Virus record (IMG/VR): IMGVR_UViG_3300050587_000146
Coordinates: 390-64,389 of that record
DNA from: a virus
Lineage: Duplodnaviria; Caudoviricetes
DNA: 64,000 nt
Direction: 5' to 3' (one strand)
This document shows positions 20,051 to 64,000 of this stretch, piece by piece (position 1 is the stretch's first letter; every line of letters begins with the position of its first letter). The translations under genes and the position numbers were made by a program. The notes below the pieces were generated by a model, which saw nothing but the letters and a program-made list of their open reading frames with translations, did not search any database and was not told the origin of the DNA.

Positions 20051-20323
20051 ATGGATAAGGTTATCCGATGGTTATATAAAAACGGGTTGCTCCTCTGCGG
20101 TGTCGGTGTCCTTCTCATGATTATTCTTTGGATTATTGGGTATTTCCTTAATGGCCTATGCGGTAAGAATTTCAACATTGATTCAGTCTGGACAGGTGTT
20201 GGAGTTCTTACCGGGGGCGGTATTACTGGATTCGGGACTCAATTATGGAAATATTGGATTGATTCTAAACATAATTCAAAGTCTGGAGAGATACCGGGGC
20301 AGGGGGTGAATGGTGATGTATAA
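20051..20323 (+). CDS. Holin (two hydrophobic segments)
   Basis: 90 aa, two TM-like segments, overlaps the endolysin start. Confidence 0.65.
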   Translation: MDKVIRWLYKNGLLLCGVGVLLMIILWIIGYFLNGLCGKNFNIDSVWTGVGVLTGGGITGFGTQLWKYWIDSKHNSKSGEIPGQGVNGDV

Positions 20324-20681
20324 GCCTAAGTATTTTGTACCGAGCGAGTTCGAATGTCATGGTGAACATTGTTGCAATCATGCCAATCCTCCGATGAATG
20401 AACGGTTGCTGATGGTTCTCGACAGGATTCGAGAAAAGGTCGGGAGGCCAGTCAATGTTGATTGTGCGTATCGGTGTCCGGTTCATAACGCGGAGGTTGG
20501 AGGTGTTCCAAACAGCTTTCATATCCAATGTATGGCGGCTGACATTTGGGTCGCTGGGATGAGTGTGGACGAGCTTGCCAAAGTTGCCGAGGAATGCGGC
20601 GCGGATGGAATCGGAAGATATTTCGATAAGAATTTTGTCCACGTCGATGTCAGGGGGTATCGGGCGCGATGGCAAGAGTAA
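20310..20681 (+). CDS. Endolysin, peptidase M15 family
   Basis: EFECH, CAYRCPVHNAEVGG..NSFH...AADI, FVHVDVRG (Zn ligands H/D/H); no cell-wall binding domain. Confidence 0.88.
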   Translation: MVMYKPKYFVPSEFECHGEHCCNHANPPMNERLLMVLDRIREKVGRPVNVDCAYRCPVHNAEVGGVPNSFHIQCMAADIWVAGMSVDELAKVAEECGADGIGRYFDKNFVHVDVRGYRARWQE

Positions 20682-21166
20682 AAGATTTTATTATCATAAT
20701 TTTAATGGTCATTGTCGCCATTCTTGGCGGCATTCTTTATTTTCAGCATAATAAAAAAGTGGTTCCTGTCAAGATGACTCAAACTGATATAAAGAATCCC
20801 GCCAAAGTCGCTGAAAATCTGAAGGTGACTTCCCAAGTCGCAGATCGGATTGTTAAAGAAATTCAAACCGTCAAAAAGCCAGTAATCGTCTATAAAGACG
20901 TTCCGGTCGGTGATGTTCCGAATAAAATTGATGATACGATTAAACAGGAAAAGCCGGATTCGGTGATAGTCACAGAAGAGCCTTTGAAGGATGTTAATGT
21001 TTACTCAATACATACCGAGCCAACATGGAGATTTGGCGGGGTGCTGTCAAATCAGGACTTCGGGTTGGCGGTAAAATACAATAATTCGGTGTATAGCGTA
21101 ACAAAGAACTTCAACGATAATACATATCGGTTCTCGGTTACGCTTTTTTTCGCCTCGCTTAAATAG
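20669..21166 (+). CDS. Membrane-anchored lysis accessory protein, spanin candidate
   Basis: N-terminal TM helix, last gene of the lysis cassette, C-terminal amphipathic beta-strands. Confidence 0.45.
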   Translation: MARVKDFIIIILMVIVAILGGILYFQHNKKVVPVKMTQTDIKNPAKVAENLKVTSQVADRIVKEIQTVKKPVIVYKDVPVGDVPNKIDDTIKQEKPDSVIVTEEPLKDVNVYSIHTEPTWRFGGVLSNQDFGLAVKYNNSVYSVTKNFNDNTYRFSVTLFFASLK

Positions 21167-21186: not shown

Positions 21187-21259
21187 CAGCTCAAGAATTT
21201 TCAAATCTTATTATATAATATTAAGCACCAAAATTTTACAAAAACTTTTTGTAAAGCAC

Positions 21260-21340: not shown

Positions 21341-22153
21341 ATGAAACGGAATTTAAAGTTCGGAGTTGAAATCGAGTTCTTCGGAATTGATAGGAATCGT
21401 GTGGCAGATGCTCTTAATCGAGCTGGAATCCGAGCTTTCGTGGAAGGTTACAATCACGCAACGCGTGGTTACTGGAAACTGACTACTGACGGGTCAGTGA
21501 ATAGTCAAGGAACTGGAAACGGTCACGGTGGTAATGAGTTGGTATCGCCTCCGCTTGAAGGTGAAGATGGTTTACGGGAATTGGAACTGGCCTTGAAAAT
21601 CCTAAACGAATGCGGCGGGAAAGTGGACAAGAGTTGCGGAATACATATTCATCACGAAATCAAAGATTTAGATTTAACTAAGATTCAAAATATCTATCGC
21701 TTATATTTCAAATTTACAGCAAGTATTGATTACTTAATGCCTCCGAGCCGTCGTTCAACAAACAATCCTTACTATTGCAAACCGATTTCTCTGGACTTAC
21801 TCGAAAGAGTTGAAAATTGTGGTTCAATTGAGGCTTTACAGAGTATGTTCCTCAACAACAGATATTGGGCAGTGAACTTCGATGCTTACAACAGATACAA
21901 GACGATAGAGTTTAGACAGCATAGTGGTTCGATAGACTTCGAGAAAGTTGGCAGTTGGGTCAGAATTACTCACAAGATAATCGAAAAGGCTTGTGCTGGC
22001 TGGAGGGTGGAAGTTGCAAAAGATAATAGTTGGAGGGTGTGCGATTCAAACTGGTGGTTTAGACAATTAGTGGGTAAGGAATTAGAGACTTACGTGGTGA
22101 ACCGGATGAACTACTGGAAGGAAAGAGAACGGACGGCAACAACGGCAGCGTAA
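21341..22153 (+). CDS. Amidoligase (Amidoligase_2, COOH-NH2 ligase type 2)
   Basis: FGVEIEF, DGS, ELVSPPL, SCGIHIH, TIEFRQHSGS motifs. Confidence 0.88.
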   Translation: MKRNLKFGVEIEFFGIDRNRVADALNRAGIRAFVEGYNHATRGYWKLTTDGSVNSQGTGNGHGGNELVSPPLEGEDGLRELELALKILNECGGKVDKSCGIHIHHEIKDLDLTKIQNIYRLYFKFTASIDYLMPPSRRSTNNPYYCKPISLDLLERVENCGSIEALQSMFLNNRYWAVNFDAYNRYKTIEFRQHSGSIDFEKVGSWVRITHKIIEKACAGWRVEVAKDNSWRVCDSNWWFRQLVGKELETYVVNRMNYWKERERTATTAA

Positions 22154-22192: not shown

Positions 22193-22224
22193 TTGCTTTT
22201 TTCCAAATATTATAATATAATATT
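22193..22224 (+). promoter_or_regulatory. SigmaA-like promoter with perfect AATATTA-N5-TAATATT operator
   Basis: TTGCTT-17 bp-TATAAT; operator at 22206-22224. Confidence 0.75.
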
Positions 22225-22238
22225 ATTAACGACAGGAG

Positions 22239-22625
22239 ATGGGAGAAATGTTCATGACAAAACGAGAATTAAAACCTCTGGAAAAAGAAGGGGTAACATA
22301 TTACAGTATTGGACAAGTTGCAGAAATGACTGATAAAAGTGTTCAGACAGTTCGTCTTTGGTGTGAATGGTCGGACGCTCAAGAAGAAGAAGGAAAGCCT
22401 CGATTTGTACCTAAACCACGAACTGACTTGGATGAACGGGGAACAAGATATTTTCACGAAAAGGACATACCAGCGATTATCAAGTTCAGTAAAAATGTTC
22501 CTTATGGGTTAATGAGTCCGTACAATCGAAAACGATGGGGCGAACGCGGGAAACATGTCACTATCGATAAGAGCATGGAGCGAATGGTCAAAGAAGGGCG
22601 AAAAGAAGAGCCTGACCTTAAATGA
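22239..22625 (+). CDS. MerR-like HTH DNA-binding regulator
   Basis: YYSIGQVAEMTDKSVQTVRLW helix-turn-helix and wing DERGTRYF. Confidence 0.7.
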   Translation: MGEMFMTKRELKPLEKEGVTYYSIGQVAEMTDKSVQTVRLWCEWSDAQEEEGKPRFVPKPRTDLDERGTRYFHEKDIPAIIKFSKNVPYGLMSPYNRKRWGERGKHVTIDKSMERMVKEGRKEEPDLK

Positions 22626-27008: not shown

Positions 27009-27097
27009 AAAATTTAATTTTCAACTCAAGAATGGGCAGTCGGCTGCTATATAGTGGTCGATTGCCTATTTTTTTTATTTACGGAGGCGAAAACAGG

Positions 27098-28141
27098 ATG
27101 ATTGTGGTCTGGGGCAAGACCGTCATGGCAGAAGTTGACCAAATCGTTGACGCGGTTCGGAATGAGCTGTTACATACCGGACTTATGCGCCGTATTCATG
27201 ATACAGGCAATAACATCATGGTCACTTGTACTGAACATAAAGGCGGGCAGGAGAGTAAGCCGTCGATGGGTATCAGCAAAGTAGAACGATACGACACAAT
27301 ACAACGGCGCGAGATACCTGCGGGAACGGTTCATTGTTTCACCTGCGGCTACACTGCGGACTTGCCAACTTGGATTGCTCACGTCCTGGGAATGGAATCT
27401 CCGGTTAAGGGCATGGACTGGCTAATGCGGCGGTATGCTTACGGGATTGATGGCGAGAGGGCTGACCTTCGGCTCAACTTGGAACGGACTTCTAAAGTCG
27501 AGGCCGAGTTCGTTCCTGACCAAGTCGTTAATGACTTATGGTTCGCTTTTAATCAAAGTGCTGACGCGATTGATTACATGGTCAATACACGCGGTATTCC
27601 TCGCGAGATATGCAACAAAGCAAAAGTTGGATACGACCGAGAGGAACATGCCGTTGCGTTCCCAGTCACAGACATCAAAGGCAGGACACTATTTATTAAA
27701 TTGAGGGGCATTGAGGGCAGACGGTTCCATAATGACGAGAACAGTCGCAAATCAATGACCTTTTTTGGCATTACGGTTCTGATTCGTGAACTCAATCGGC
27801 TCAAGGCCGGGGGGCAGGACATAAGTAGAGTCAAGGTCTGGGTTTGTGAGGGCGAAATTGACTGCTTGACTTTATGGCGGCGCGGGATATTGGCAGTTTC
27901 TTTGATGGGTTCAGACATGTCAGAGCAACAGGCCAAAATTCTCAAACGGTTCGGAGTTGGTCAGGTTGTCGCGGCGTTGGACAATCCTGCGATTGATGTG
28001 GCTGGGCGTAAGGGAGTCAGGAAGATGAAAGACCTGCTGATACCTATGGGTATTAAAGTTTTCAATGTACGTTACAATTCAAACAAAAAAGACTGGAATG
28101 AAATGACAGATGAAGAATTTGCAATGGTTGAACTGTTTTAG
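27098..28141 (+). CDS. DNA primase
   Basis: Zn finger CTEH...HCFTCG; TOPRIM CEGEIDCL and LDNP..D..G. Confidence 0.88.
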   Translation: MIVVWGKTVMAEVDQIVDAVRNELLHTGLMRRIHDTGNNIMVTCTEHKGGQESKPSMGISKVERYDTIQRREIPAGTVHCFTCGYTADLPTWIAHVLGMESPVKGMDWLMRRYAYGIDGERADLRLNLERTSKVEAEFVPDQVVNDLWFAFNQSADAIDYMVNTRGIPREICNKAKVGYDREEHAVAFPVTDIKGRTLFIKLRGIEGRRFHNDENSRKSMTFFGITVLIRELNRLKAGGQDISRVKVWVCEGEIDCLTLWRRGILAVSLMGSDMSEQQAKILKRFGVGQVVAALDNPAIDVAGRKGVRKMKDLLIPMGIKVFNVRYNSNKKDWNEMTDEEFAMVELF

Positions 28142-28166
28142 TAAAAAATATGGGACTTCTTTCATA

Positions 28167-28223
28167 TTGATATTCGAACACATGTTCGGTAAAATATAAT
28201 TCCTCTCCTCGAACAAATGTTTG
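28167..28223 (+). promoter_or_regulatory. SOS-type promoter with two Firmicutes LexA boxes
   Basis: TTGATA-17 bp-TAAAAT with perfect CGAAC-ACAT-GTTCG (28175-28188) in the spacer; second box CGAAC-AAAT-GTTTG at 28210-28223. Confidence 0.75.
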
Positions 28224-28369
28224 AATAAAGTAATTATTACATAATTAGGTAACGTATTTCCAGCATTATGTAACTTTTTAAATATAGGAAAAATGTGAAA
28301 ATCCGAGATAATCCGAGATGACTATGTAAAAATCAGCAAAAAAGACCAAAAATCAAATTTTCCAAACTG

Positions 28370-28489
28370 AATATTATATGGTAATATCGTTCTTATGATA
28401 TGAATATTACTATATAACATTCGGTTATTAAAAGGGGTGATAGCCGTGGCGGTATAGTTTTGTCTTTTTGAATATTACCATATAATGTT
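28370..28489. promoter_or_regulatory. Three AATATTA-N5-TAATATT-like operators upstream of the sigma gene
   Basis: Copies at 28370-28388, 28403-28421 and 28471-28489. Confidence 0.75.
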
Positions 28490-28520
28490 CAATTTAAAAA
28501 TTCAAGCGGAGGCAGAAACT

Positions 28521-29099
28521 ATGGAAAATTTCGTAAAAACCACAGAGGAACTCGTGAAAGAGTATCAACATGGAAACGGTGTTGCATTCGACGGAATCGT
28601 GAAAAATATGGACAGGATGGTAAAACAGCTCGCGAATAAAGGTGTAAATGGTATGTCGTTTAAGGAAGTGTACTCCGAACTGCTCGAAACTCTTTGGAAA
28701 TGTTGCAAGGATTATAATGGTTCAGGTAAGTTGACGACAATGTTTTTCACTTACGGAAACAACAAGTTGCGGGAATTGCGGGAAATGATGATGCATGATG
28801 TAAGAAAGGCAAATACATACGCGTCGTCTTTCGAGCAAATGCAGGATGACACAGGTTTTGATATTTCCCATTCTGATGATGGATTCGATAACATAGAAGT
28901 TGCAACTTTAATTGAATCGCTCGGACTGACTGATAATGAACGGATGTGCCTTGAAATCCTTATGAATGGTCAGTATGAATCGAAAAAGGACGTTGCAAAT
29001 CGGATGGGCGTTGACCCGAGCGCAGTCAATTATTTTCAAAAGAGCATTGCAAGAAAGTTGACCGCTGAACTCAAGAATCCGAGGGTATGCATTATATAA
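28521..29099 (+). CDS. Phage sigma70-family RNA polymerase sigma factor
   Basis: Region 2-like (ELVKEYQHG...LLETLWKCCKDYN..SGKLTTMFFTY) and region 4 HTH (LTDNERMCLEIL..SKKDVANRMGVDPSAVNY). Confidence 0.75.
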   Translation: MENFVKTTEELVKEYQHGNGVAFDGIVKNMDRMVKQLANKGVNGMSFKEVYSELLETLWKCCKDYNGSGKLTTMFFTYGNNKLRELREMMMHDVRKANTYASSFEQMQDDTGFDISHSDDGFDNIEVATLIESLGLTDNERMCLEILMNGQYESKKDVANRMGVDPSAVNYFQKSIARKLTAELKNPRVCII

Positions 29100-29141
29100 T
29101 GCTTTGAACGCGGACAGGCCAACATGAAAGGGGTGATTCGG

Positions 29142-29291
29142 ATGGGCAGATTGAGCAAGATGATTAATATCTTTCGGGGAATCTTATCCGGCTTGGCTGT
29201 CGTCATCGTGAAACATAACGAGCAGAACGCGAAAGTTTATTGCGGTAAAAATGTAAGCAAGGATTTTGTGGTTCGGTCATTCGGTCAATGA
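29142..29291 (+). CDS. Small hypothetical protein (49 aa, not in ORF track)
   Basis: GGGGTG RBS, directly after the phage promoter at 29069. Confidence 0.4.
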   Translation: MGRLSKMINIFRGILSGLAVVIVKHNEQNAKVYCGKNVSKDFVVRSFGQ

Positions 29292-29354
29292 GTTACACAC
29301 TCAAACAAATGTTAGCAAATTAAAAGCCCACGGGCAAATTAGGAGGAAACAACA

Positions 29355-29963
29355 ATGGTGGAAGCAATCAAAGGTATCGACAATATCAAAAAGGCGTTGG
29401 AAAAGTACAAAGGCAGTGGTAAACGGAAGTTCTTTTCGTTATCCGATGACGGAGATACCGCAAATGTACGGTTCCTGAATGGCGATGAAAACGACCTCAA
29501 TATCTATGTGGTTCACAAGGTTAAGATTGGCGACAATGAGCGTTATGTGAAATGCACCGAGGAAGAGGATTGTCCGCTGTGTCAGGCCGGGAACTATCCG
29601 CAATTAAAGATGTTCCTGTTCCTTATCGATAGACGGGACAACGAGGTCAAGATGTGGGAACGCGGAAAGACCTTCATTCCCGAGATTCTTGGATTCATTC
29701 AACGTTACGGTTCACTCAATAGCCGGGATTATGAAATCGTTCGTCATGGTAAGGCCAAGAGTCAAGATACTAAGTATCAATTATTCCCGCTTGATAAAAA
29801 GGCCGAGAAGAATCTCTCGCAGATGCCGGAAATCTGCGGTGACAATAAATTCATTTTGGTTAAAACTATCAGCGAGATGCGGGAAATTGCAAACGGAACA
29901 TACGTCTTACCCGCAGCGGGGAAAGGCAAAGATGCTGACAAAGACCCCGAGGACGTATTTTAA
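29355..29963 (+). CDS. Single-stranded DNA-binding protein (phage type)
   Basis: FFSLSDDG..VRFL, Zn-like H..C..CPLC, acidic C-terminal tail ending EDVF; precedes the polymerase. Confidence 0.65.
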   Translation: MVEAIKGIDNIKKALEKYKGSGKRKFFSLSDDGDTANVRFLNGDENDLNIYVVHKVKIGDNERYVKCTEEEDCPLCQAGNYPQLKMFLFLIDRRDNEVKMWERGKTFIPEILGFIQRYGSLNSRDYEIVRHGKAKSQDTKYQLFPLDKKAEKNLSQMPEICGDNKFILVKTISEMREIANGTYVLPAAGKGKDADKDPEDVF

Positions 29964-36952: not shown

Positions 36953-37144
36953 ATGCAATCAAAGCGATTGATTAAAACAGGGGAAACGGCTCCGACGTAT
37001 CAAGAGTTCATCAATAACATTGCCAAAGATTTTGAGAAAAAGCTCAATTTTACTCCCGAAAAGGCTCGGGAACAAGCAGAAGCAGTTGCAAGCATGTATA
37101 AACATACTTTTGCCGAATATAGAGAGGAGGAAGTTCAATGTTAA
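36953..37144 (+). CDS. Hypothetical protein
   Basis: GGGGTG RBS after the promoter. Confidence 0.5.
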   Translation: MQSKRLIKTGETAPTYQEFINNIAKDFEKKLNFTPEKAREQAEAVASMYKHTFAEYREEEVQC

Positions 37145-37578
37145 ATTACTCAAAGGTTTACAAGCATATCAAGGCTGATGTGGTTGAGGCTTTCAAACTA
37201 TTAATGCCGGACATATGGCATACTGACCCCGAAACTCAAGAACGGATGATGAAAGAATGGTTGGATAAAGCCTCCGAGATTTATGGGGTTGAGAGTCCTA
37301 AGTTCGAATTTCGGAATGATGATGAAGATGGTTACGTGGCGACGGGTGGCGGGTGTTACAATCCAGACGAGAACAAAATTACTATCTTTAAAAAAGCCAG
37401 TGTCGTCTCTTTGGCGCATGAGTTCAGGCATATGTTACAGTATAAGAAAGAGGACTTGAAACTGTTTAAGGAGGACAAAGAACATGATACAAGGGCGTGG
37501 TCAGTATCTCTCTTTAGGAAAGCAAACCCAGCCGCCTACAGGCGAGCAGTTAATCGCGGAATACTTCACTTCGACTAA
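37138..37578 (+). CDS. Zincin-like (HExxH) metallopeptidase-domain protein
   Basis: GGCYNP...LAHEFRH. Confidence 0.6.
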   Translation: MLNYSKVYKHIKADVVEAFKLLMPDIWHTDPETQERMMKEWLDKASEIYGVESPKFEFRNDDEDGYVATGGGCYNPDENKITIFKKASVVSLAHEFRHMLQYKKEDLKLFKEDKEHDTRAWSVSLFRKANPAAYRRAVNRGILHFD

Positions 37579-37597
37579 GAGAAAAGAGGCGAAAGAA

Positions 37598-38482
37598 ATG
37601 GAACGCAAATTTTTATATTTCGCTTATGGTTCAAATCTCAATACTGCTCGGATGTTCGACAGATGTGAGAATGCTCAATTGAAATCAAAGGCGATTTTGG
37701 AGAATTACAGATTGGTGTTTCTAAAGAATGACAAAGAACGGGCAGTTGCAAACATATTACCGGCAGAGGGAAAGGTTGTTCATGGAGCGTTGTACAAAGT
37801 TAGTGCGTTGGACGTTGCCGAGTTGGACAAGTTCGAGGGTCATCCAAGGTTATACTGCCGGGAATGGGTTGAGGTAAAACTTAAAAGCGGCGCGACGGTC
37901 AAGGCTTTTACTTACATGATGGTTGATAGTGACAAGCGACAGTTCGGGACTCCTTCAAGAGATTATTTCAATCATTTATTTAAGGGTTATACTCAATGGG
38001 GTTTACCAAAGGCAAGTTTAATGAACGCATTGGAAAGGGTGGTCAAAGTGGAAGAAAATCCGAATTTACACAGTGTTTTCGTTTACGGCTCATTGCTTAA
38101 AGGGTTCTGGAATCATGAGCGGTGTTTGAGTGAGGTTCCATGTAAAGGCGAGGCGATTCTTAAAGGGAATTATGACCTGTATCATCTTCCAGTTGGTTAT
38201 CCGGCTCTGGTGGAGGGCAACAAGGAAAACTGTATTATTGGTGAGGTTTACAGCGTGAACAGTGATGAACTGGCGCGGCTGGACATGCTCGAAGGGTATC
38301 ACAAAGACCGTCCTGGTTACTCGATGTATCGGCGGGAAACGGTTCAAGTCGAATTGGAAAACGGAAAGGTTGTCAACTCGTTCGTATATATCTATCAACT
38401 TAAATTAGCAACAGGGGCAGAATTAGTAAAAAACGGTGATTGGAGAGAGTTCATGAGAGAGAGAGAAATACCCGCCACTTGA
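37598..38482 (+). CDS. Tandem gamma-glutamylcyclotransferase (GGCT/AIG2-like) protein
   Basis: Two domains: YFAYGSNL...LDKFEG and VFVYGSLL...LDMLEG. Confidence 0.85.
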   Translation: MERKFLYFAYGSNLNTARMFDRCENAQLKSKAILENYRLVFLKNDKERAVANILPAEGKVVHGALYKVSALDVAELDKFEGHPRLYCREWVEVKLKSGATVKAFTYMMVDSDKRQFGTPSRDYFNHLFKGYTQWGLPKASLMNALERVVKVEENPNLHSVFVYGSLLKGFWNHERCLSEVPCKGEAILKGNYDLYHLPVGYPALVEGNKENCIIGEVYSVNSDELARLDMLEGYHKDRPGYSMYRRETVQVELENGKVVNSFVYIYQLKLATGAELVKNGDWREFMREREIPAT

Positions 38483-44252: not shown

Positions 44253-44521
44253 TTCGAAAAGAAATCATTGGCTTGGTGGACAAGCAATTTGCAAAAGGTG
44301 TTGCAAAATATGGAGCGGCCTTGTCAGAAAATCCTAAGAATTTGAGCGTTATTGACATGCTTGACTACTTGGCAGAGGAACTGGTTGACGCACTTCACTA
44401 CAACCGGAAGCTCAAAGAAATGTTAATAACCACTAAAAATAACGGTATTGAGTTTTCACTGGAAGAGAAAGACTTTATCACTCGACTCGCAAAGAAGGTG
44501 GAGGCCAATGGGTCACGTTAA
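44033..44521 (+). CDS. Protein with C-terminal all-alpha NTP-pyrophosphohydrolase-like motif
   Basis: AGGAG RBS; KGVAKYG...LDYLAEELVDALHY. Confidence 0.5.
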   Translation: MAKKLTLKKGNRVIAIKDSPEGLYKAGDTGYIADNDEFPGAVAVHFENSKWPKIYTRSDKAADYLQDFPTNDVIRKEIIGLVDKQFAKGVAKYGAALSENPKNLSVIDMLDYLAEELVDALHYNRKLKEMLITTKNNGIEFSLEEKDFITRLAKKVEANGSR

Positions 44522-45059
44522 GCGACAAACATACAACAATGAGCTGATGACAGCCGTTGATTACAGCACTGTTACAGGTATAAAAAATGTAATCCGGCGA
44601 CTGTTGTCTTTTGAGGGATTAGCAGAGCGCGGCGATACTGTCGCCGCCTCTGTTCTTGTCGATATAAAAAAAGCTATTGGTACTTATGGAGGTAGTCTAC
44701 TGGAGATACTCACGCCAAAACAGCGGTATGTAATCGTCGAGGTTCTGGTCAACGATAAAGCTCAAGCTGACGTTGCAAATGACCTCGATATATCGCAGCA
44801 AGGCGTGAGTTATTTGTTGGGTGATGGTATCAAACGAATCATGAAATATCTAAATACCGGAAAAATCCCTTGGCGGCGGGTTACAGACGAGGAGAAGGCG
44901 TTCATCCTCGAAAACTATGGAAAAATGCCATTGTACAAAATCGCTCGACAGTTGCAACGCTCGGAACAAAACTGCCGGGAAATCTTCAAGAATCTACAAA
45001 AGGAGGGAGATGGGGATGGGGAAGAAAGGTCAGGAAAGGATTTTAGAGGAGGCGGCTGA
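44508..45059 (+). CDS. Sigma70 region-4-like HTH regulator
   Basis: LTPKQRYVI...AQADVANDLDISQQGVSYLL, plus a second Myb-like helix (WRRVTDEEKAFILENY...IARQLQRS). Confidence 0.65.
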   Translation: MGHVKRQTYNNELMTAVDYSTVTGIKNVIRRLLSFEGLAERGDTVAASVLVDIKKAIGTYGGSLLEILTPKQRYVIVEVLVNDKAQADVANDLDISQQGVSYLLGDGIKRIMKYLNTGKIPWRRVTDEEKAFILENYGKMPLYKIARQLQRSEQNCREIFKNLQKEGDGDGEERSGKDFRGGG

Positions 45060-55049: not shown

Positions 55050-55203
55050 TTTAGTTAAGCAGGTTGCATTAATGCGGCTTTGCCGAAGGTGTTGCAGAGC
55101 GAGTTGCATACACTACTACATTCTAAACCAATTCCCGATTCGCTGGCCTAACGAGGACGAGCGGAAAATCTGTCAGGACTTTCTGGTTGGGAGGGAAGAT
55201 TAA
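55042..55203 (+). CDS. Small Cys-rich hypothetical protein
   Basis: Coupled to both neighbours. Confidence 0.35.
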   Translation: MCDLVKQVALMRLCRRCCRASCIHYYILNQFPIRWPNEDERKICQDFLVGRED

Positions 55204-55865
55204 TGCAGGTTATTGATATACCTTTGAATCAAATCAAGCCGTATCCTAACAATCCGCGTAAAAACGCAAAAGCGGTTGATGTAGTGGCTCATTCTATCAG
55301 TGCATACGGGTTCAACAGCCCGATAGTGGTTGACAGGGATATGGTTATTATCAACGGTCATACTCGGTACTTGGCGGCTCAAAAGCTCGGGCTTGAAACG
55401 GTTCCGGTCGTAGTTGCGGCTGGGCTTTCTCCCGATAGGGTCAAGGCTTACCGGATTATGGACAACAGGTCAGCCAGTATCGCAGAGTGGGACAATGACA
55501 AGCTACTTCAGGAAATCGTTGAACTGCTGGACGCTGATACGTTCGACCTCAATGTCGAGTTCACAGGGTTCTCTCCAGACGACTTGAGCAAGGAACTGGG
55601 CTTGAAACTCGGCGAAGAGCCGAAAAAGAAAACTAAAAAGGGCGCGGAGAATGAAGTGGATGGCGAGATTGAGTTCGCTAACGAGTTACTCGAAGAACAT
55701 CAGTACGTCGTCCTCTACTTTGATAATACACTGGACTGGCAAGTGGCAAAGGAAAAGCTCGGGTTGCATTCAGTAAGGCGTAACAATACGGACGCGGCTC
55801 GGGACAGGAAAGCGTTGGGCAGGGTAATTCCTGGTAAGGATGTAATCAATAGGCTCAAAGATTAA
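55203..55865 (+). CDS. ParB/Srx N-terminal-domain protein
   Basis: IKPYPNNPRKN, YGFNSPIVVD, INGHTRYLAAQKLG. Confidence 0.85.
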   Translation: MQVIDIPLNQIKPYPNNPRKNAKAVDVVAHSISAYGFNSPIVVDRDMVIINGHTRYLAAQKLGLETVPVVVAAGLSPDRVKAYRIMDNRSASIAEWDNDKLLQEIVELLDADTFDLNVEFTGFSPDDLSKELGLKLGEEPKKKTKKGAENEVDGEIEFANELLEEHQYVVLYFDNTLDWQVAKEKLGLHSVRRNNTDAARDRKALGRVIPGKDVINRLKD

Positions 55866-55880
55866 AGGAAACGCGTAAAC

Positions 55881-56018
55881 ATGGAGTTCTTTATTGCAGG
55901 GTTTTTTGTTCCTGGTGTTCTGTTCGGCTTTGACATTCGTAACGATGAGCGGGAAAAGACATTAAATATCTTTTTCGGTGTCATCGGACTTACTTTCGGG
56001 TGGGAAGTTGGTGAGTAA
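55881..56018 (+). CDS. Small membrane protein (45 aa, not in ORF track)
   Basis: AAAGGA RBS; hydrophobic. Confidence 0.35.
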   Translation: MEFFIAGFFVPGVLFGFDIRNDEREKTLNIFFGVIGLTFGWEVGE

Positions 56019-56166
56019 TTTGTCGGTTACTTGTCAAAACTGTAAATTTTGGAATGGTGGTTGTGATGACCCCGAGGAATATGTTCATCGGGATACTGGT
56101 GAGTCTTGTTGTCGGTATCATCCAGACGCAATTCCTGAATCCGAGTATGAGGATGGTGGCGAGTAA
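56011..56166 (+). CDS. Small Cys-rich protein
   Basis: CQNCKFW..GC...CC. Confidence 0.45.
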   Translation: MSNLSVTCQNCKFWNGGCDDPEEYVHRDTGESCCRYHPDAIPESEYEDGGE

Positions 56167-56885
56167 TGAAGGTCATTATTCCGTCATACAAACGACCTGA
56201 CAGAGTATACGCGGCGACATACTTACCCGAGGCGTATATCTGTATTGCCGAGGATGAGTTCGAAGCGTACAAGGCAAATTACGGCTCTAACAGATTAATC
56301 GTAATGCCTCCCGGCGTTCAAGGTAATATTGCTCGGGTAAGAAACTGGATTTTGAACAATGTGGACAACGACGAAATCGTGATGATGGACGACGACGTTC
56401 GCTATCTTTCCAGAACAAACGAGCGGGAGTGTCATCCACTTGAAGCAAATCAGGCGATGGATTTTTTCGAGAACGGGTTCCTGATGGCAGAGGACATGGG
56501 CGTGTATCTCTGGGGCATGAATGTCACTCCAGACCGTATCATGTATTGTGAGTATACTCCCTTTTCGACACAGGCTCCGATTCTCGCGACAACTTGTTGC
56601 ATTCGGCGCAATCCTCTCCGGTACGATGAGCGAATCCCGTTCAAAGAGGATTACGATTACTTTCTCCAGCATTTGAAGAAATACCGAAAGACGCTCCGGT
56701 TCAATATGTATCATTATCATCCAGACCATATTATCGGGTCGGGCGGGTGCATTACAAACCGGACGATGGACGCGGAGAAAGAACAGGCGATGATTCTGCA
56801 AAAGAAGTGGGGAAGTAATATCGTCAAGGTCGATTTCGGGCGGTCAATTAATCCGATTGTCAAAAGCCCACTCGCTGGAATCTGA
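56166..56885 (+). CDS. GT-A fold glycosyltransferase (TAGT/GREB1-like)
   Basis: IIPSYKRP, ARVRNWIL, MMDDD (DxD), KEDYDY, GGC. Confidence 0.75.
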   Translation: MKVIIPSYKRPDRVYAATYLPEAYICIAEDEFEAYKANYGSNRLIVMPPGVQGNIARVRNWILNNVDNDEIVMMDDDVRYLSRTNERECHPLEANQAMDFFENGFLMAEDMGVYLWGMNVTPDRIMYCEYTPFSTQAPILATTCCIRRNPLRYDERIPFKEDYDYFLQHLKKYRKTLRFNMYHYHPDHIIGSGGCITNRTMDAEKEQAMILQKKWGSNIVKVDFGRSINPIVKSPLAGI

Positions 56886-61945: not shown

Positions 61946-61996
61946 GGTGAGGAGAGCAACAAAATTGGTAAGGGAGTAAAATAAGGGGTGAGGAAA

Positions 61997-62187: not shown

Positions 62188-62222
62188 AATCCCGTCCATT
62201 ACTGGGCGGGGTTTCTTTTTTC
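62188..62222 (+). terminator. Intrinsic terminator
   Basis: AAATCCCGTCC-ATTACT-GGGCGGGGTTT hairpin plus T run. Confidence 0.75.
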
Positions 62223-62461
62223 TTCTGTATCCAATTTGAGCATTTTATCAAGAGCATATTTATTTAGAATTGATTGAGCCTCTTCTGACGGCTCATTTTG
62301 TAAGTTTACAATGTATCTTGTTTTATTCTTCATTGTTTTATTCCTTTCATGCAAGATAAACATTGTATAATGCACACAGCTCAATCCTTGAGTTCAATTT
62401 GAAAAAATTTATCGGTGATGTTATACTTATTTAATAACATGCCAACTTGGAGGGAAACGTT

Positions 62462-64000
62462 ATGGAACTCATGGTCAGAATCCGTCATGTCGCGATTTAT
62501 TTGAGGAAATCTCGGGATGATGGTGAGTACGAGGACGCACTTGCTAAACATCGGGAAACTCTTGTAAATTACGCCAATAAAAATAATTGGACGTATGAAA
62601 TTTATGAGGAGATTGCCTCGGGGGAAAAGATAGAATTTAGGCCGAAGATGCAGGAGTTACTGAAACATATCGCCAGCGGGTTATATGACGGGGTTCTGGT
62701 AGTTGATATTGACAGACTCGGGCGTGGTGATTTCGAGGAATGGGGCAGAATTATTAAAGTATTTTTACTCTCTGATACTCTTATCATTACTCCTCAAAGG
62801 GTTTATGACCCGTCAGAGGAATCTGATGAAATCTCCCTGGACTTACAGTCGTTCTTTGCCAAATTTGAGTATAAAAAGATTAAAAAACGTCTGTACGGCG
62901 GCAAGGTATCCGGGGCAAAAAAGGGCATGTGGACGAATGGAAAACCTCCGTTTCCCTATAAATATCTCCGAGATACAAAAGAGGTTATCGTCGATGAAAG
63001 TAAACGTCCGGTTTATATACTGATTAAAGAAATGTTTCTGGAAAAGGATATGGGACTTGTCCCGATTGCTCGCTGGCTTAACCAAAATCGAATTAAACTA
63101 CCGTCAGGTAAAACTCCCGTCGAAGATGGTCGTTCTTGCGGGTGGGAAAGTACAACAGTTCACAGATTATTAATTCATCCGTTCCATATGGGTTATGTAG
63201 TCTTGGGAAAAAGTAAAGGTAGCGGGCATAAAAAGAAAGGCGGTAAAGTAATTAAACAACCAAAAGAATCCTGGACGGTCGGAAAGGGTAATCATGAAAT
63301 ATTAAAAACAGAGGAAGAACATCAAAGGATACTGGCAAAATTAGCCGAAAATAATAAAATGCCGTCTCGTACTAAACAAGCTGTCAATCCTGTTTCCGGC
63401 TTACTTTATTGCAAAAAGTGCGGTTGTAAAATGCAGTTCCGGCAAAAAACTCTCAAAGATGGTAAGAGACATTTTTATACAGTTTGCGTTCATGAGTATC
63501 CTGACGGGACTCAATGTGAACAGGTTGGCACTAAGCTCGATGATGACTTTTTCGAGGCTTTATATGTCAAAATCATCAAGTTAAATACCAAAAAGATGTT
63601 ATCAGAGCGTGATAAAAGTGACGCTCAAAATAAACTTCGAGCGTTACTTGAGACTGCAAAGTACGACCTGGACAGGACAAATAAGGCTTTAAAAAATTTA
63701 TACGAAGCGTTTGAAATGGGGGATATTCCAAGGGTAGATTTTGTGGAAAGACGGGCAATTCGTGACAAGGAGAAAAATGAACTTGCCGCTAAAATTGCAG
63801 AGTTAGAGGTACAAATCGCCGTTACTTCAACGGGCATTACCGAAGAGCAACTTCTCCAATTAATTCAAAAATTCAAAGACAGTTGGTGGTCGCTTGAAAC
63901 GAATCAAGAGAAAAATCAACTTCTTCTTCAAATAGTTGATAAAATTATTTACAATAAATGGATAGACGGGACTGTTGCCTTAGATGTCATTTTTAAGTAA
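62462..64000 (+). CDS. Large serine recombinase (integrase)
   Basis: IYLRKS catalytic Ser, DIDRLGRG, recombinase domain, Zn ribbon LLYCKKCG, coiled coil; stop TAA at 63998-64000. Confidence 0.93.
   Translation: MELMVRIRHVAIYLRKSRDDGEYEDALAKHRETLVNYANKNNWTYEIYEEIASGEKIEFRPKMQELLKHIASGLYDGVLVVDIDRLGRGDFEEWGRIIKVFLLSDTLIITPQRVYDPSEESDEISLDLQSFFAKFEYKKIKKRLYGGKVSGAKKGMWTNGKPPFPYKYLRDTKEVIVDESKRPVYILIKEMFLEKDMGLVPIARWLNQNRIKLPSGKTPVEDGRSCGWESTTVHRLLIHPFHMGYVVLGKSKGSGHKKKGGKVIKQPKESWTVGKGNHEILKTEEEHQRILAKLAENNKMPSRTKQAVNPVSGLLYCKKCGCKMQFRQKTLKDGKRHFYTVCVHEYPDGTQCEQVGTKLDDDFFEALYVKIIKLNTKKMLSERDKSDAQNKLRALLETAKYDLDRTNKALKNLYEAFEMGDIPRVDFVERRAIRDKEKNELAAKIAELEVQIAVTSTGITEEQLLQLIQKFKDSWWSLETNQEKNQLLLQIVDKIIYNKWIDGTVALDVIFK

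Follow-up and report, generated by a model that had tools for sequence, protein, structure and literature searches.

How a temperate phage without a cleavable CI repressor senses damage to the DNA of its host is known for a few models only. This question is raised by a stretch of 64,000 nucleotides from a tailed phage (bases 390-64389 of the single 64,389-bp IMG/VR record IMGVR_UViG_3300050587_000146; we call this whole stretch the window and give all coordinates as window positions), in which a 379-bp gap at 28142-28520 carries LexA boxes and opens onto a gene for a sigma-like protein. The original prediction had proposed a two-key switch, in which host LexA and a phage repressor together govern a sigma-factor cascade in a tailed, integrating phage. 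Our analysis leads to a closely related reading, to which we assign a probability of roughly one half: host LexA and an operator-binding phage repressor, for which the best candidate is a MerR-fold protein encoded at 22248-22625, would jointly lock the sigma gene, and the SOS response would unlock it. The genome-wide layout of promoters, as read from the sequence, fits such a two-key lock on a sigma-driven programme. Its serine integrase, its classification as a provirus in IMG/VR and its structural genes identify the phage as temperate, integrating and tailed, as had been proposed. A virulent phage is ruled out by the integrase and the provirus status.

The promoter at the centre of this reading, P1 (28167-28195, + strand), is a host sigma-A-type promoter of the form TTGATA-17-TAAAAT with no phage operator in its core. 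Its score of 10 out of 12 in a promoter scan is the best on the + strand between 27900 and 29400. The 17-bp spacer is filled by LexA box 1, such that TTGATA (28167-28172) is followed by two bases, the box (CGAACACATGTTCG, 28175-28188), a single base and TAAAAT (28190-28195). Box 1 is a perfect copy of the Gram-positive Cheo-box palindrome CGAAC-N4-GTTCG, while box 2 (CGAACAAATGTTTG, 28210-28223) has one mismatch, in its right half-site, and lies 35 bp downstream when counted from start to start. Box 2 covers about +9 to +22 of the predicted P1 transcript, which puts one box inside the promoter core and the other just past the start site. Both boxes are thus present where the original prediction had read them, and we predict that P1 is an SOS promoter repressed by LexA, which would bind at these two sites. 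The perfect box is unique within the window. At least one perfect box arises in 95 of 1000 dinucleotide-preserving shuffles of the window, and a perfect box accompanied within 60 bp by a second box that has no more than one mismatch arises in none of 1000 such shuffles. The window contains four sites with one mismatch or none, and all of them fall in intergenic DNA, which makes up only about 10% of it. Box 1 also agrees at 13 of 14 positions with the Bacillus subtilis consensus implied by Table 1 of a review of the prophage SPbeta (PMC8270828), a consensus that may not be that of the host; the one difference is outside the core, and box 1 is nearer to this consensus than are SPbeta sites that LexA binds at 4-12 nM (PMC8270828).

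A scan of IMG/VR for the geometry TTGnnA-nn-CGAAC-N4-GTTCG-n-TAnnnT found P1-type promoters in 39 contigs. One such promoter precedes a lexA gene, one an ANT/Bro antirepressor and one an ImmA-like protease, and in other contigs the same geometry stands ahead of Cro-like helix-turn-helix (HTH) genes or small open reading frames (ORFs). Since this geometry recurs in 39 contigs, including before lexA, P1 appears to be a standard form of LexA-controlled promoter in such phages. Additionally, 16 IMG/VR contigs (L007, L017, L020, L021, L024, L025, L028-L031, L033, L035, L037, L038, L041 and L043) have a LexA-boxed promoter of identical sequence, TTGAAAAT-CGAACAAACGTTCG-CTATACT, and in all of them it drives the same 59-residue ORF, which begins MDNIDRF and is a candidate for a small SOS-controlled phage regulator. 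In the phage studied here, two further LexA-like boxes, CGAAGTACAGTTCG and CAAACGGTTGTTCG, form a pair at 2545-2574 in the gap after the major capsid gene; both depart from the GAAC core by a mismatch. Operator-like sites are located beside them, at 2490 and 2522. The first of the two boxes also takes part in a 7-bp hairpin, GGACGAA...TTCGTCC, and the site could be either a weak SOS site or an RNA structure.

Which LexA motif applies depends on the host. The nearest clusters of the integrase are mostly from Bacillota and the best relatives of the primase, at about 30% identity, are from phages of Bacillus, Clostridium and Streptococcus, which together point softly to a host in the Bacillota. 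The endolysin is a 123-residue M15 peptidase without a wall-binding domain and is followed by a membrane-anchored final lysis gene (20310-21166); its small size and the lack of such a domain hint at a diderm host, perhaps from a diderm lineage of the Bacillota. One could therefore suppose that LexA does not bind these boxes in this host, either because the host has another LexA motif or because they are the site of a phage protein or a by-product of AT-rich repeats, with P1 being constitutive or under some other control. The endolysin speaks for this view, as does the 9.5% of shuffles that contain at least one perfect box. Yet the box pair is absent from all 1000 shuffles, both boxes occupy classic repressing positions, the same promoter geometry precedes lexA itself in another IMG/VR contig, and no LexA-like DNA-binding domain that might occupy the site was found in the record. 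The integrase clusters and the nearest primase relatives also argue against it, though most of the 149 weaker primase matches are from Streptomyces phages. We consider this explanation quite improbable.

P1 opens onto a leader of 318 nucleotides. Its longest ORF up to the sigma start has three codons, and a promoter and terminator scan of 27900-29400 found no terminator-like site; P1 therefore appears to transcribe the sigma gene. An antirepressor behind P1 is ruled out, because no ORF of more than three codons lies between P1 and sigma. The leader contains a tandem 10-bp repeat (GAAAATCCGA / GATAATCCGA, 28297-28316, + strand) and then, as had been predicted, three phage operators ahead of the sigma gene. 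Operator 1 (AATATTATATGGTAATATC, 28370-28388) overlaps a weak promoter, TTTCCA-17-TAATAT with a TG extension; operator 2 (AATATTACTATATAACATT) is at 28403-28421; and operator 3 (AATATTACCATATAATGTT, 28471-28489) includes a perfect TATAAT that precedes the sigma start by about 33 bp and has a poor -35 element. Each differs by one mismatch from AATATTA-N5-TAATATT. Operator 1 has the opposite orientation to operators 2 and 3, with a likeness that reaches beyond the palindrome (28358-28500). It is 80-86% complementary over 29-30 nucleotides to the regions of operators 2 and 3, so that the leader RNA may form alternative long hairpins near the ribosome-binding site of the sigma gene. This complementarity, and a leader that folds better than shuffles (z = -2.5), would suit a P1 that mainly makes a regulatory leader RNA, with alternative folds controlling the translation of sigma or read-through into it. 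We regard such RNA-based control as very improbable, as palindromic operators give complementarity of this kind automatically, the 379-bp gap has no Rfam match above chance level and no terminator, and the same operator is found at nine other promoters that have no such leader.

The gene downstream of the leader (28521-29099, + strand) has a GGAGG ribosome-binding site and encodes sigma-1, a protein of 192 residues that we assign with moderate confidence, from its family matches, to the sigma-70 family as a diverged two-domain member. Sigma-1 matches the PHROG sigma factor family phrog_351 (1.2e-11, residues 6-185), scores 30 bits against TIGR02937 (E 3.5e-7, residues 22-183), where the cut-off is 42.9, and scores 24.5 bits for a GerE HTH, where the cut-off is 23.5. 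A three-sequence profile of sigma-1 recovers SigF region 2 (3e-5), region 2 of extracytoplasmic function sigma factors and region 4 of other sigma factors from the PDB. The AlphaFold model is poor (predicted local distance difference test, pLDDT, of 57), and its Foldseek list consists mostly of sigma factors with E values of 0.07 or above. A family-model search gave no match to the TcdR group. There is also a second protein with sigma region 4 (44508-45059, + strand; Sigma70_r4_2, 6.6e-6). It has region 4 only and may be the next step of a cascade, an appropriator or an anti-sigma partner.

What sigma-1 might transcribe is suggested by a promoter class that we term class B. Class B promoters have the form ACTCAAG-17-TATATAAT (or TATATAGT) and occur in 12 copies on the + strand, where the spacing is exactly 17 bp and the promoters lie 12-45 nucleotides before start codons, often right after a run of T. 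A thirteenth, class B-like copy at 21189 has a shorter spacer and an operator-like site beside it at 21204, and a fourteenth lies on the minus strand. Apart from the operator-like site beside the copy at 21189, these promoters carry neither an operator nor a LexA box. They head replication, recombination, nucleotide, accessory and packaging-side genes. For example, one (ACTCAAG-17-TATATAGT, 27024-27058, + strand) precedes the gene for the Toprim DNA primase (27098-28141, + strand; Toprim_2, E 1.7e-15), the final gene ahead of the 379-bp gap, and another (29069-29103, + strand), located within the final codons of sigma-1, drives a small ORF together with the SSB gene. The sigma-1 gene has host-type promoters only, while the second sigma-like gene is within a class B operon. 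On the simplest view, class B promoters are probably read by sigma-1. A third, late promoter class was looked for in the intergenic regions of the structural genes and nothing obvious was seen there.

The second key would be provided by a family of phage operators. The palindrome AATATTA-N5-TAATATT occurs with at most two mismatches at 15 sites in the window, against 0.94 expected. Recognisable operator sites cover the spacer and -10 element of host-type promoters such as TTGACA-17-TAATAT, and these operator-linked promoters precede the amidoligase gene, the MerR-like gene (a perfect site), the zincin/GGCT operon, gene 38591, parM, gene 48688 and a small ORF at 61988. Eleven host-type promoter sites other than P1 have this phage-specific operator and no LexA box. 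Outside the structural genes, every intergenic host-type promoter has an operator in its core except P1 and the promoter of the integrase (TTGAAA-17-TATACT with a TG extension, 62399-62427, + strand), which has no LexA box either. The three operator-linked promoters at the sigma gene have the poorest -35 elements of the set, and P1 is much the best promoter there. Beyond the sigma region, one operator-controlled operon contains a tandem GGCT-like gene together with a gene for a 146-residue protein (37138-37578) that has the zincin motif HEFRH and weak matches to putative metallopeptidase families, though not to ImmA/M78.

The phage very probably has a repressor of its own, and the sole small DNA-binding candidate found in the record is the 125-residue MerR-fold protein encoded at 22248-22625 (+ strand). 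Its matches to MerR_1 and HTH_17 are weak and below the Pfam cut-off, and its family comprises 126 representative clusters. The model is a confident one (pLDDT 87.8) and has the MerR fold, with a helix at residues 98-115 after an N-terminal winged HTH. The best Foldseek rows are MerR-family regulators bound to promoter DNA, with a weak best E value of 4.5e-3, and the lower rows are MarR and unrelated chains. The promoter of the gene, TTGCTT-17-TATAAT, holds a perfect operator at 22206-22224. MerR proteins bind palindromes in promoter spacers. As this is the position that the operators take here, and as the gene's promoter itself contains a perfect operator, the product of this gene is the best repressor candidate; that it is the operator-binding repressor is, on the strength of this model and these sites, a tentative assignment that falls slightly short of an even bet.

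Six-frame searches of the whole 64,389-bp record gave no match at E <= 10 to HTH_3, HTH_19, Peptidase_S24, LexA_DNA_bind or Peptidase_M78. A lambda-type CI, with an HTH_3-type DNA-binding domain and an S24 self-cleavage domain, was therefore found neither in the window nor in the part of the record beyond it, in agreement with the original prediction, which saw no XRE/S24 repressor in the window. A Pfam scan of the 42 unannotated ORFs likewise found no repressor or antirepressor family (ANT, Bro or related). As far as these family searches reach, the term CI-less holds for lambda-type repressors only. The accompanying claim that there is no divergent gene pair needs correction, as a 44-codon ORF (62199-62333, minus strand) diverges from the integrase promoter; what stands is that this is not a pair of the CI/Cro type. 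This ORF is the sole plausible minus-strand gene, ends at a bidirectional terminator and is preceded by the fourteenth class B-like promoter (ACTCAAG-17-TATACAAT, 62361-62393, minus strand), which faces away from the adjacent integrase promoter.

A conventional repressor or antirepressor might instead be encoded in the roughly 2.3 kb of flank trimmed from the record, or in an ORF of unrecognised fold, in which case P1 would be one among several accessory promoters that respond to SOS. The parent contig measures 66,730 bp compared with 64,389 bp for the record, the CheckV completeness is 62%, and many ORFs have no family match. A search of metagenome contigs by exact match to the record end gave no match. 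We nevertheless judge this improbable: in addition to lacking XRE and S24 domains in all six frames, the record already comprises modules for head, tail, lysis, replication, packaging and integration, its end coincides with the stop codon of the integrase gene, beside the expected attachment site, and the operator system is genome-wide and needs no region of the OL/OR type.

Under the reading that we favour, with LexA and a phage repressor both on the sigma gene, events would run as follows. In the lysogen, host LexA would shut P1 through the two boxes, one in the spacer and one just past the start site, while the phage repressor would occupy the operators that overlap all other host-type early promoters. 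The three operators between P1 and sigma would silence the weak local promoters and would probably also hinder read-through from P1 and from the sigma-dependent primase promoter. With no sigma-1 made, class B would be silent, and the integrase promoter, having neither operator nor box, would stay on. DNA damage would lead to self-cleavage of LexA, P1 would fire, and sigma-1 would accumulate and, rather than host sigma-A, would switch on the operator-free class B genes. Sigma-1 would then boost its own synthesis, as transcripts from the class B primase promoter at 27024 could run into the sigma gene, there being no terminator between. In a naive cell there would be no repressor, and the weak operator-linked promoters could start this loop despite bound LexA. 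Because class B is operator-free and appears to be sigma-driven, the lytic programme could begin with the phage repressor uncleaved. The class B-like promoter at 62361-62393 would drive the 44-codon ORF; we speculate that this may encode an excision factor whose synthesis has to await active phage sigma. It is thus conceivable, though rather doubtful, that induction needs no inactivation of the repressor at all and that LexA-released sigma bypasses an intact MerR-type repressor, perhaps including excision via this small gene.

Several observations weigh against the joint lock. The three operators downstream of P1 might block P1 transcripts fully, which would make the release of LexA insufficient. 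The assignment of sigma-1 falls below curated cut-offs and its model is poor, and the -10 element of class B is TATAAT-like, so that host sigma-A together with a phage activator could read class B instead. The incomplete record, with part of its parent contig outside it, counts here as well, and a diderm host, in which LexA may recognise another motif, is suggested by the small size of the endolysin and its lack of a wall-binding domain. Finally, deletion of lexA does not activate the Bacillus subtilis prophage SPbeta despite its LexA-bound SOS boxes, which therefore do not hold lysogeny (PMC8270828). Given this precedent, the flank outside the record and the MerR candidate repressor, a role for LexA as one key to lysogeny can only be inferred, even though the sites and genes of the two-key proposal are all present.

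One alternative is that LexA only tunes sigma, as an SOS boost or a timing device, which may be what the SOS boxes of SPbeta do, and that the operator-binding repressor alone holds lysogeny and is inactivated by another route. The phage operator lies on about a dozen host-type promoters and LexA boxes on one, and in SPbeta LexA binds several promoters in vitro and yet is dispensable for keeping the prophage inactive (PMC8270828). The HEFRH zincin protein might be a protease of the repressor; however, its gene is behind an operator-controlled promoter, so that it cannot start induction alone. Neither an S24 or ImmA (M78) domain in six frames nor an antirepressor family among the 42 ORFs was found, and the LexA-boxed promoter is the strongest one of the single gene on which the operator-free class appears to depend. 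A tuning role for LexA is hence unlikely in our estimate, though it is not negligible.

Comparison with known systems helps to place the proposed lock of LexA and repressor on the sigma gene. In coliphage 186 (Tum), the Gifsy prophages and N15 (AntC), a LexA-controlled antirepressor bypasses a non-cleavable phage repressor by binding and inactivating it. The phage analysed here would share with them a non-cleavable repressor that is bypassed by a LexA-silenced gene. It differs in that the predicted LexA-gated product is a sigma factor that would bypass repressed promoters instead of removing the repressor, and in that no antirepressor ORF follows P1. In the sigma cascade of SPO1, gp28 is followed by gp33/34; this phage is virulent and has neither a LexA nor a repressor gate. 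As in SPO1, a sigma from host-type early promoters would redirect polymerase to a phage class and a second sigma-like gene lies in the next class; here there is in addition a proposed gate of LexA and repressor, and the class B -10 element resembles that of the host.

Direct control by LexA is established for GIL01, a tectivirus of Bacillus thuringiensis that persists as a 15-kb linear plasmid prophage, where LexA with the co-repressor gp7 controls the early promoter P1 and the LexA homologue gp6 activates late genes (PMC4551915, PMC6182141). The two phages have in common two host LexA sites, which are predicted ones here, at an early phage promoter, the lack of a lambda-type CI and the SOS release of lytic transcription, which is our proposal for the present phage. 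In contrast to GIL01, this is a 64-kb integrated tailed phage with LexA boxes on the sigma promoter only and separate operators elsewhere. No LexA_DNA_bind domain that would indicate a gp6-like protein is present in the record, and no gp7-like protein was recognised in it, gp7 being without a family model. A switch in which LexA is the sole repressor, as in GIL01, is ruled out, as other early promoters carry a different operator and the phage integrates. SPbeta has SOS boxes at yolC/yolD, yopS/T and yorB, with some pairs about 30 bp apart, and the promoter of its integrase gene sprA stays on in the lysogen (PMC8270828). Both prophages have a large serine recombinase at the prophage end, an integrase promoter that looks constitutive, several SOS boxes and a lysogeny control that is not of the cleavable-CI type; more speculatively, the 44-codon sigma-dependent ORF would parallel sprB. 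The SPbeta boxes are not at a sigma gene, however, SPbeta has a single-subunit RNA polymerase in place of a sigma, and there is no sequence relationship between the two. A third comparison is with the BCN5 locus of Clostridium perfringens plasmid pIP404, which produces a UviA-dependent, ultraviolet-inducible bacteriocin and combines a putative LexA site with an element-encoded sigma, UviA, of the TcdR group (PMC4459074, PMC4885068). In the present phage, too, a mobile element would use a putative LexA site and its own sigma for a damage-inducible lethal programme. The differences are that BCN5 is a plasmid bacteriocin locus and not a phage, and that its LexA-binding site has been assigned to the regulatory region of the bcn gene (PMC4459074), whereas the boxes described here are on the promoter of the sigma gene itself. 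The design thus combines known pieces, namely direct LexA control, SOS boxes in a serine-integrase phage, and a LexA site with an element-encoded sigma. A limited literature search found no paper in which a complete tailed temperate phage has a LexA-gated sigma for its induction switch.

This wiring is not unique to the present phage. In contigs L008 (5665-6941, minus strand), L015 and L023, a LexA promoter of P1 geometry is followed by a 56-residue zinc-ribbon ORF and, about 630 bp downstream, by a sigma-like gene (Sigma70_r4_2), and L027 has the same wiring from LexA promoter to sigma independently. None of these four records contains an S24 domain. The predicted SOS-to-sigma connection recurs in unrelated IMG/VR phages of at least two further lineages. 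Megablast and tblastn searches found no close relative of the present phage, and no match to sigma, among GenBank phages, and searches of GTDB genomes, IMG/VR and JGI metagenomes with the sigma protein and the three-sequence alignment found no related loci. Just two homologues of sigma-1 are known to us, at about 50% identity, both on Logan contigs. Searches with TerL, primase and SSB led to distant loci only; one of these, L004, has the same order of primase, an intervening gene, SSB and polymerase, but there the intervening gene is not a sigma and the gap and LexA boxes are absent.

The record begins at the ATG of a head gene and finishes at the stop codon of the large serine recombinase, and every gene is on the + strand except for one tiny ORF. 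Capsid and tail genes (1-19.5 kb) are followed by lysis genes that include the endolysin (19.7-21.2 kb), then by the amidoligase and MerR-like genes, and then by a replication block consisting of a DnaD-like initiator, a DnaC-like loader, DnaB helicase, ThyX and the Toprim primase. After the 379-bp gap and the sigma-like gene come SSB, a family A DNA polymerase, a Cas4-like nuclease and a RecA-like recombinase. Further on are an anaerobic ribonucleotide reductase, a dUTPase and the second protein with sigma region 4, which are followed by PhoH, ParM, a ParR-like gene, small accessory genes, terS, a methyltransferase, a ParB-like gene and a glycosyltransferase. The last block comprises TerL, portal, MuF, a zeta-like kinase and the integrase (62462-64000, + strand; phrog_95, 7.8e-92, with Resolvase, Recombinase and Zn_ribbon_recom domains). 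The integrase and attachment site sit between the MuF and zeta-like head genes (60336 onward) and the scaffold and capsid genes at the start of the record. Integration thus breaks the head module in two, and only excision joins it again. Additionally, amidoligase, tandem GGCT-like, ParB-like and glycosyltransferase genes (21341-22153, 37484-38482 and 55203-56885) are spread over operator-controlled and class B units, and this set suggests a chemistry of DNA or cell-wall modification.

A sigma factor gated by LexA as a master switch would give a simple bistable design, with two repressors on one gene and positive feedback. If true, it would explain the induction of phages that have non-cleavable repressors, and the bypass of an intact repressor would constitute a fourth coupling of SOS to induction, beside self-cleavage of the repressor, LexA-controlled antirepressors and LexA as the repressor. 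The parts, consisting of a LexA-boxed promoter, a 19-bp operator, a promoter class of 14 members, two sigma-like genes and a MerR-fold candidate repressor, are testable in Bacillus subtilis. The design may be common in phages of Bacillota and in elements derived from them.

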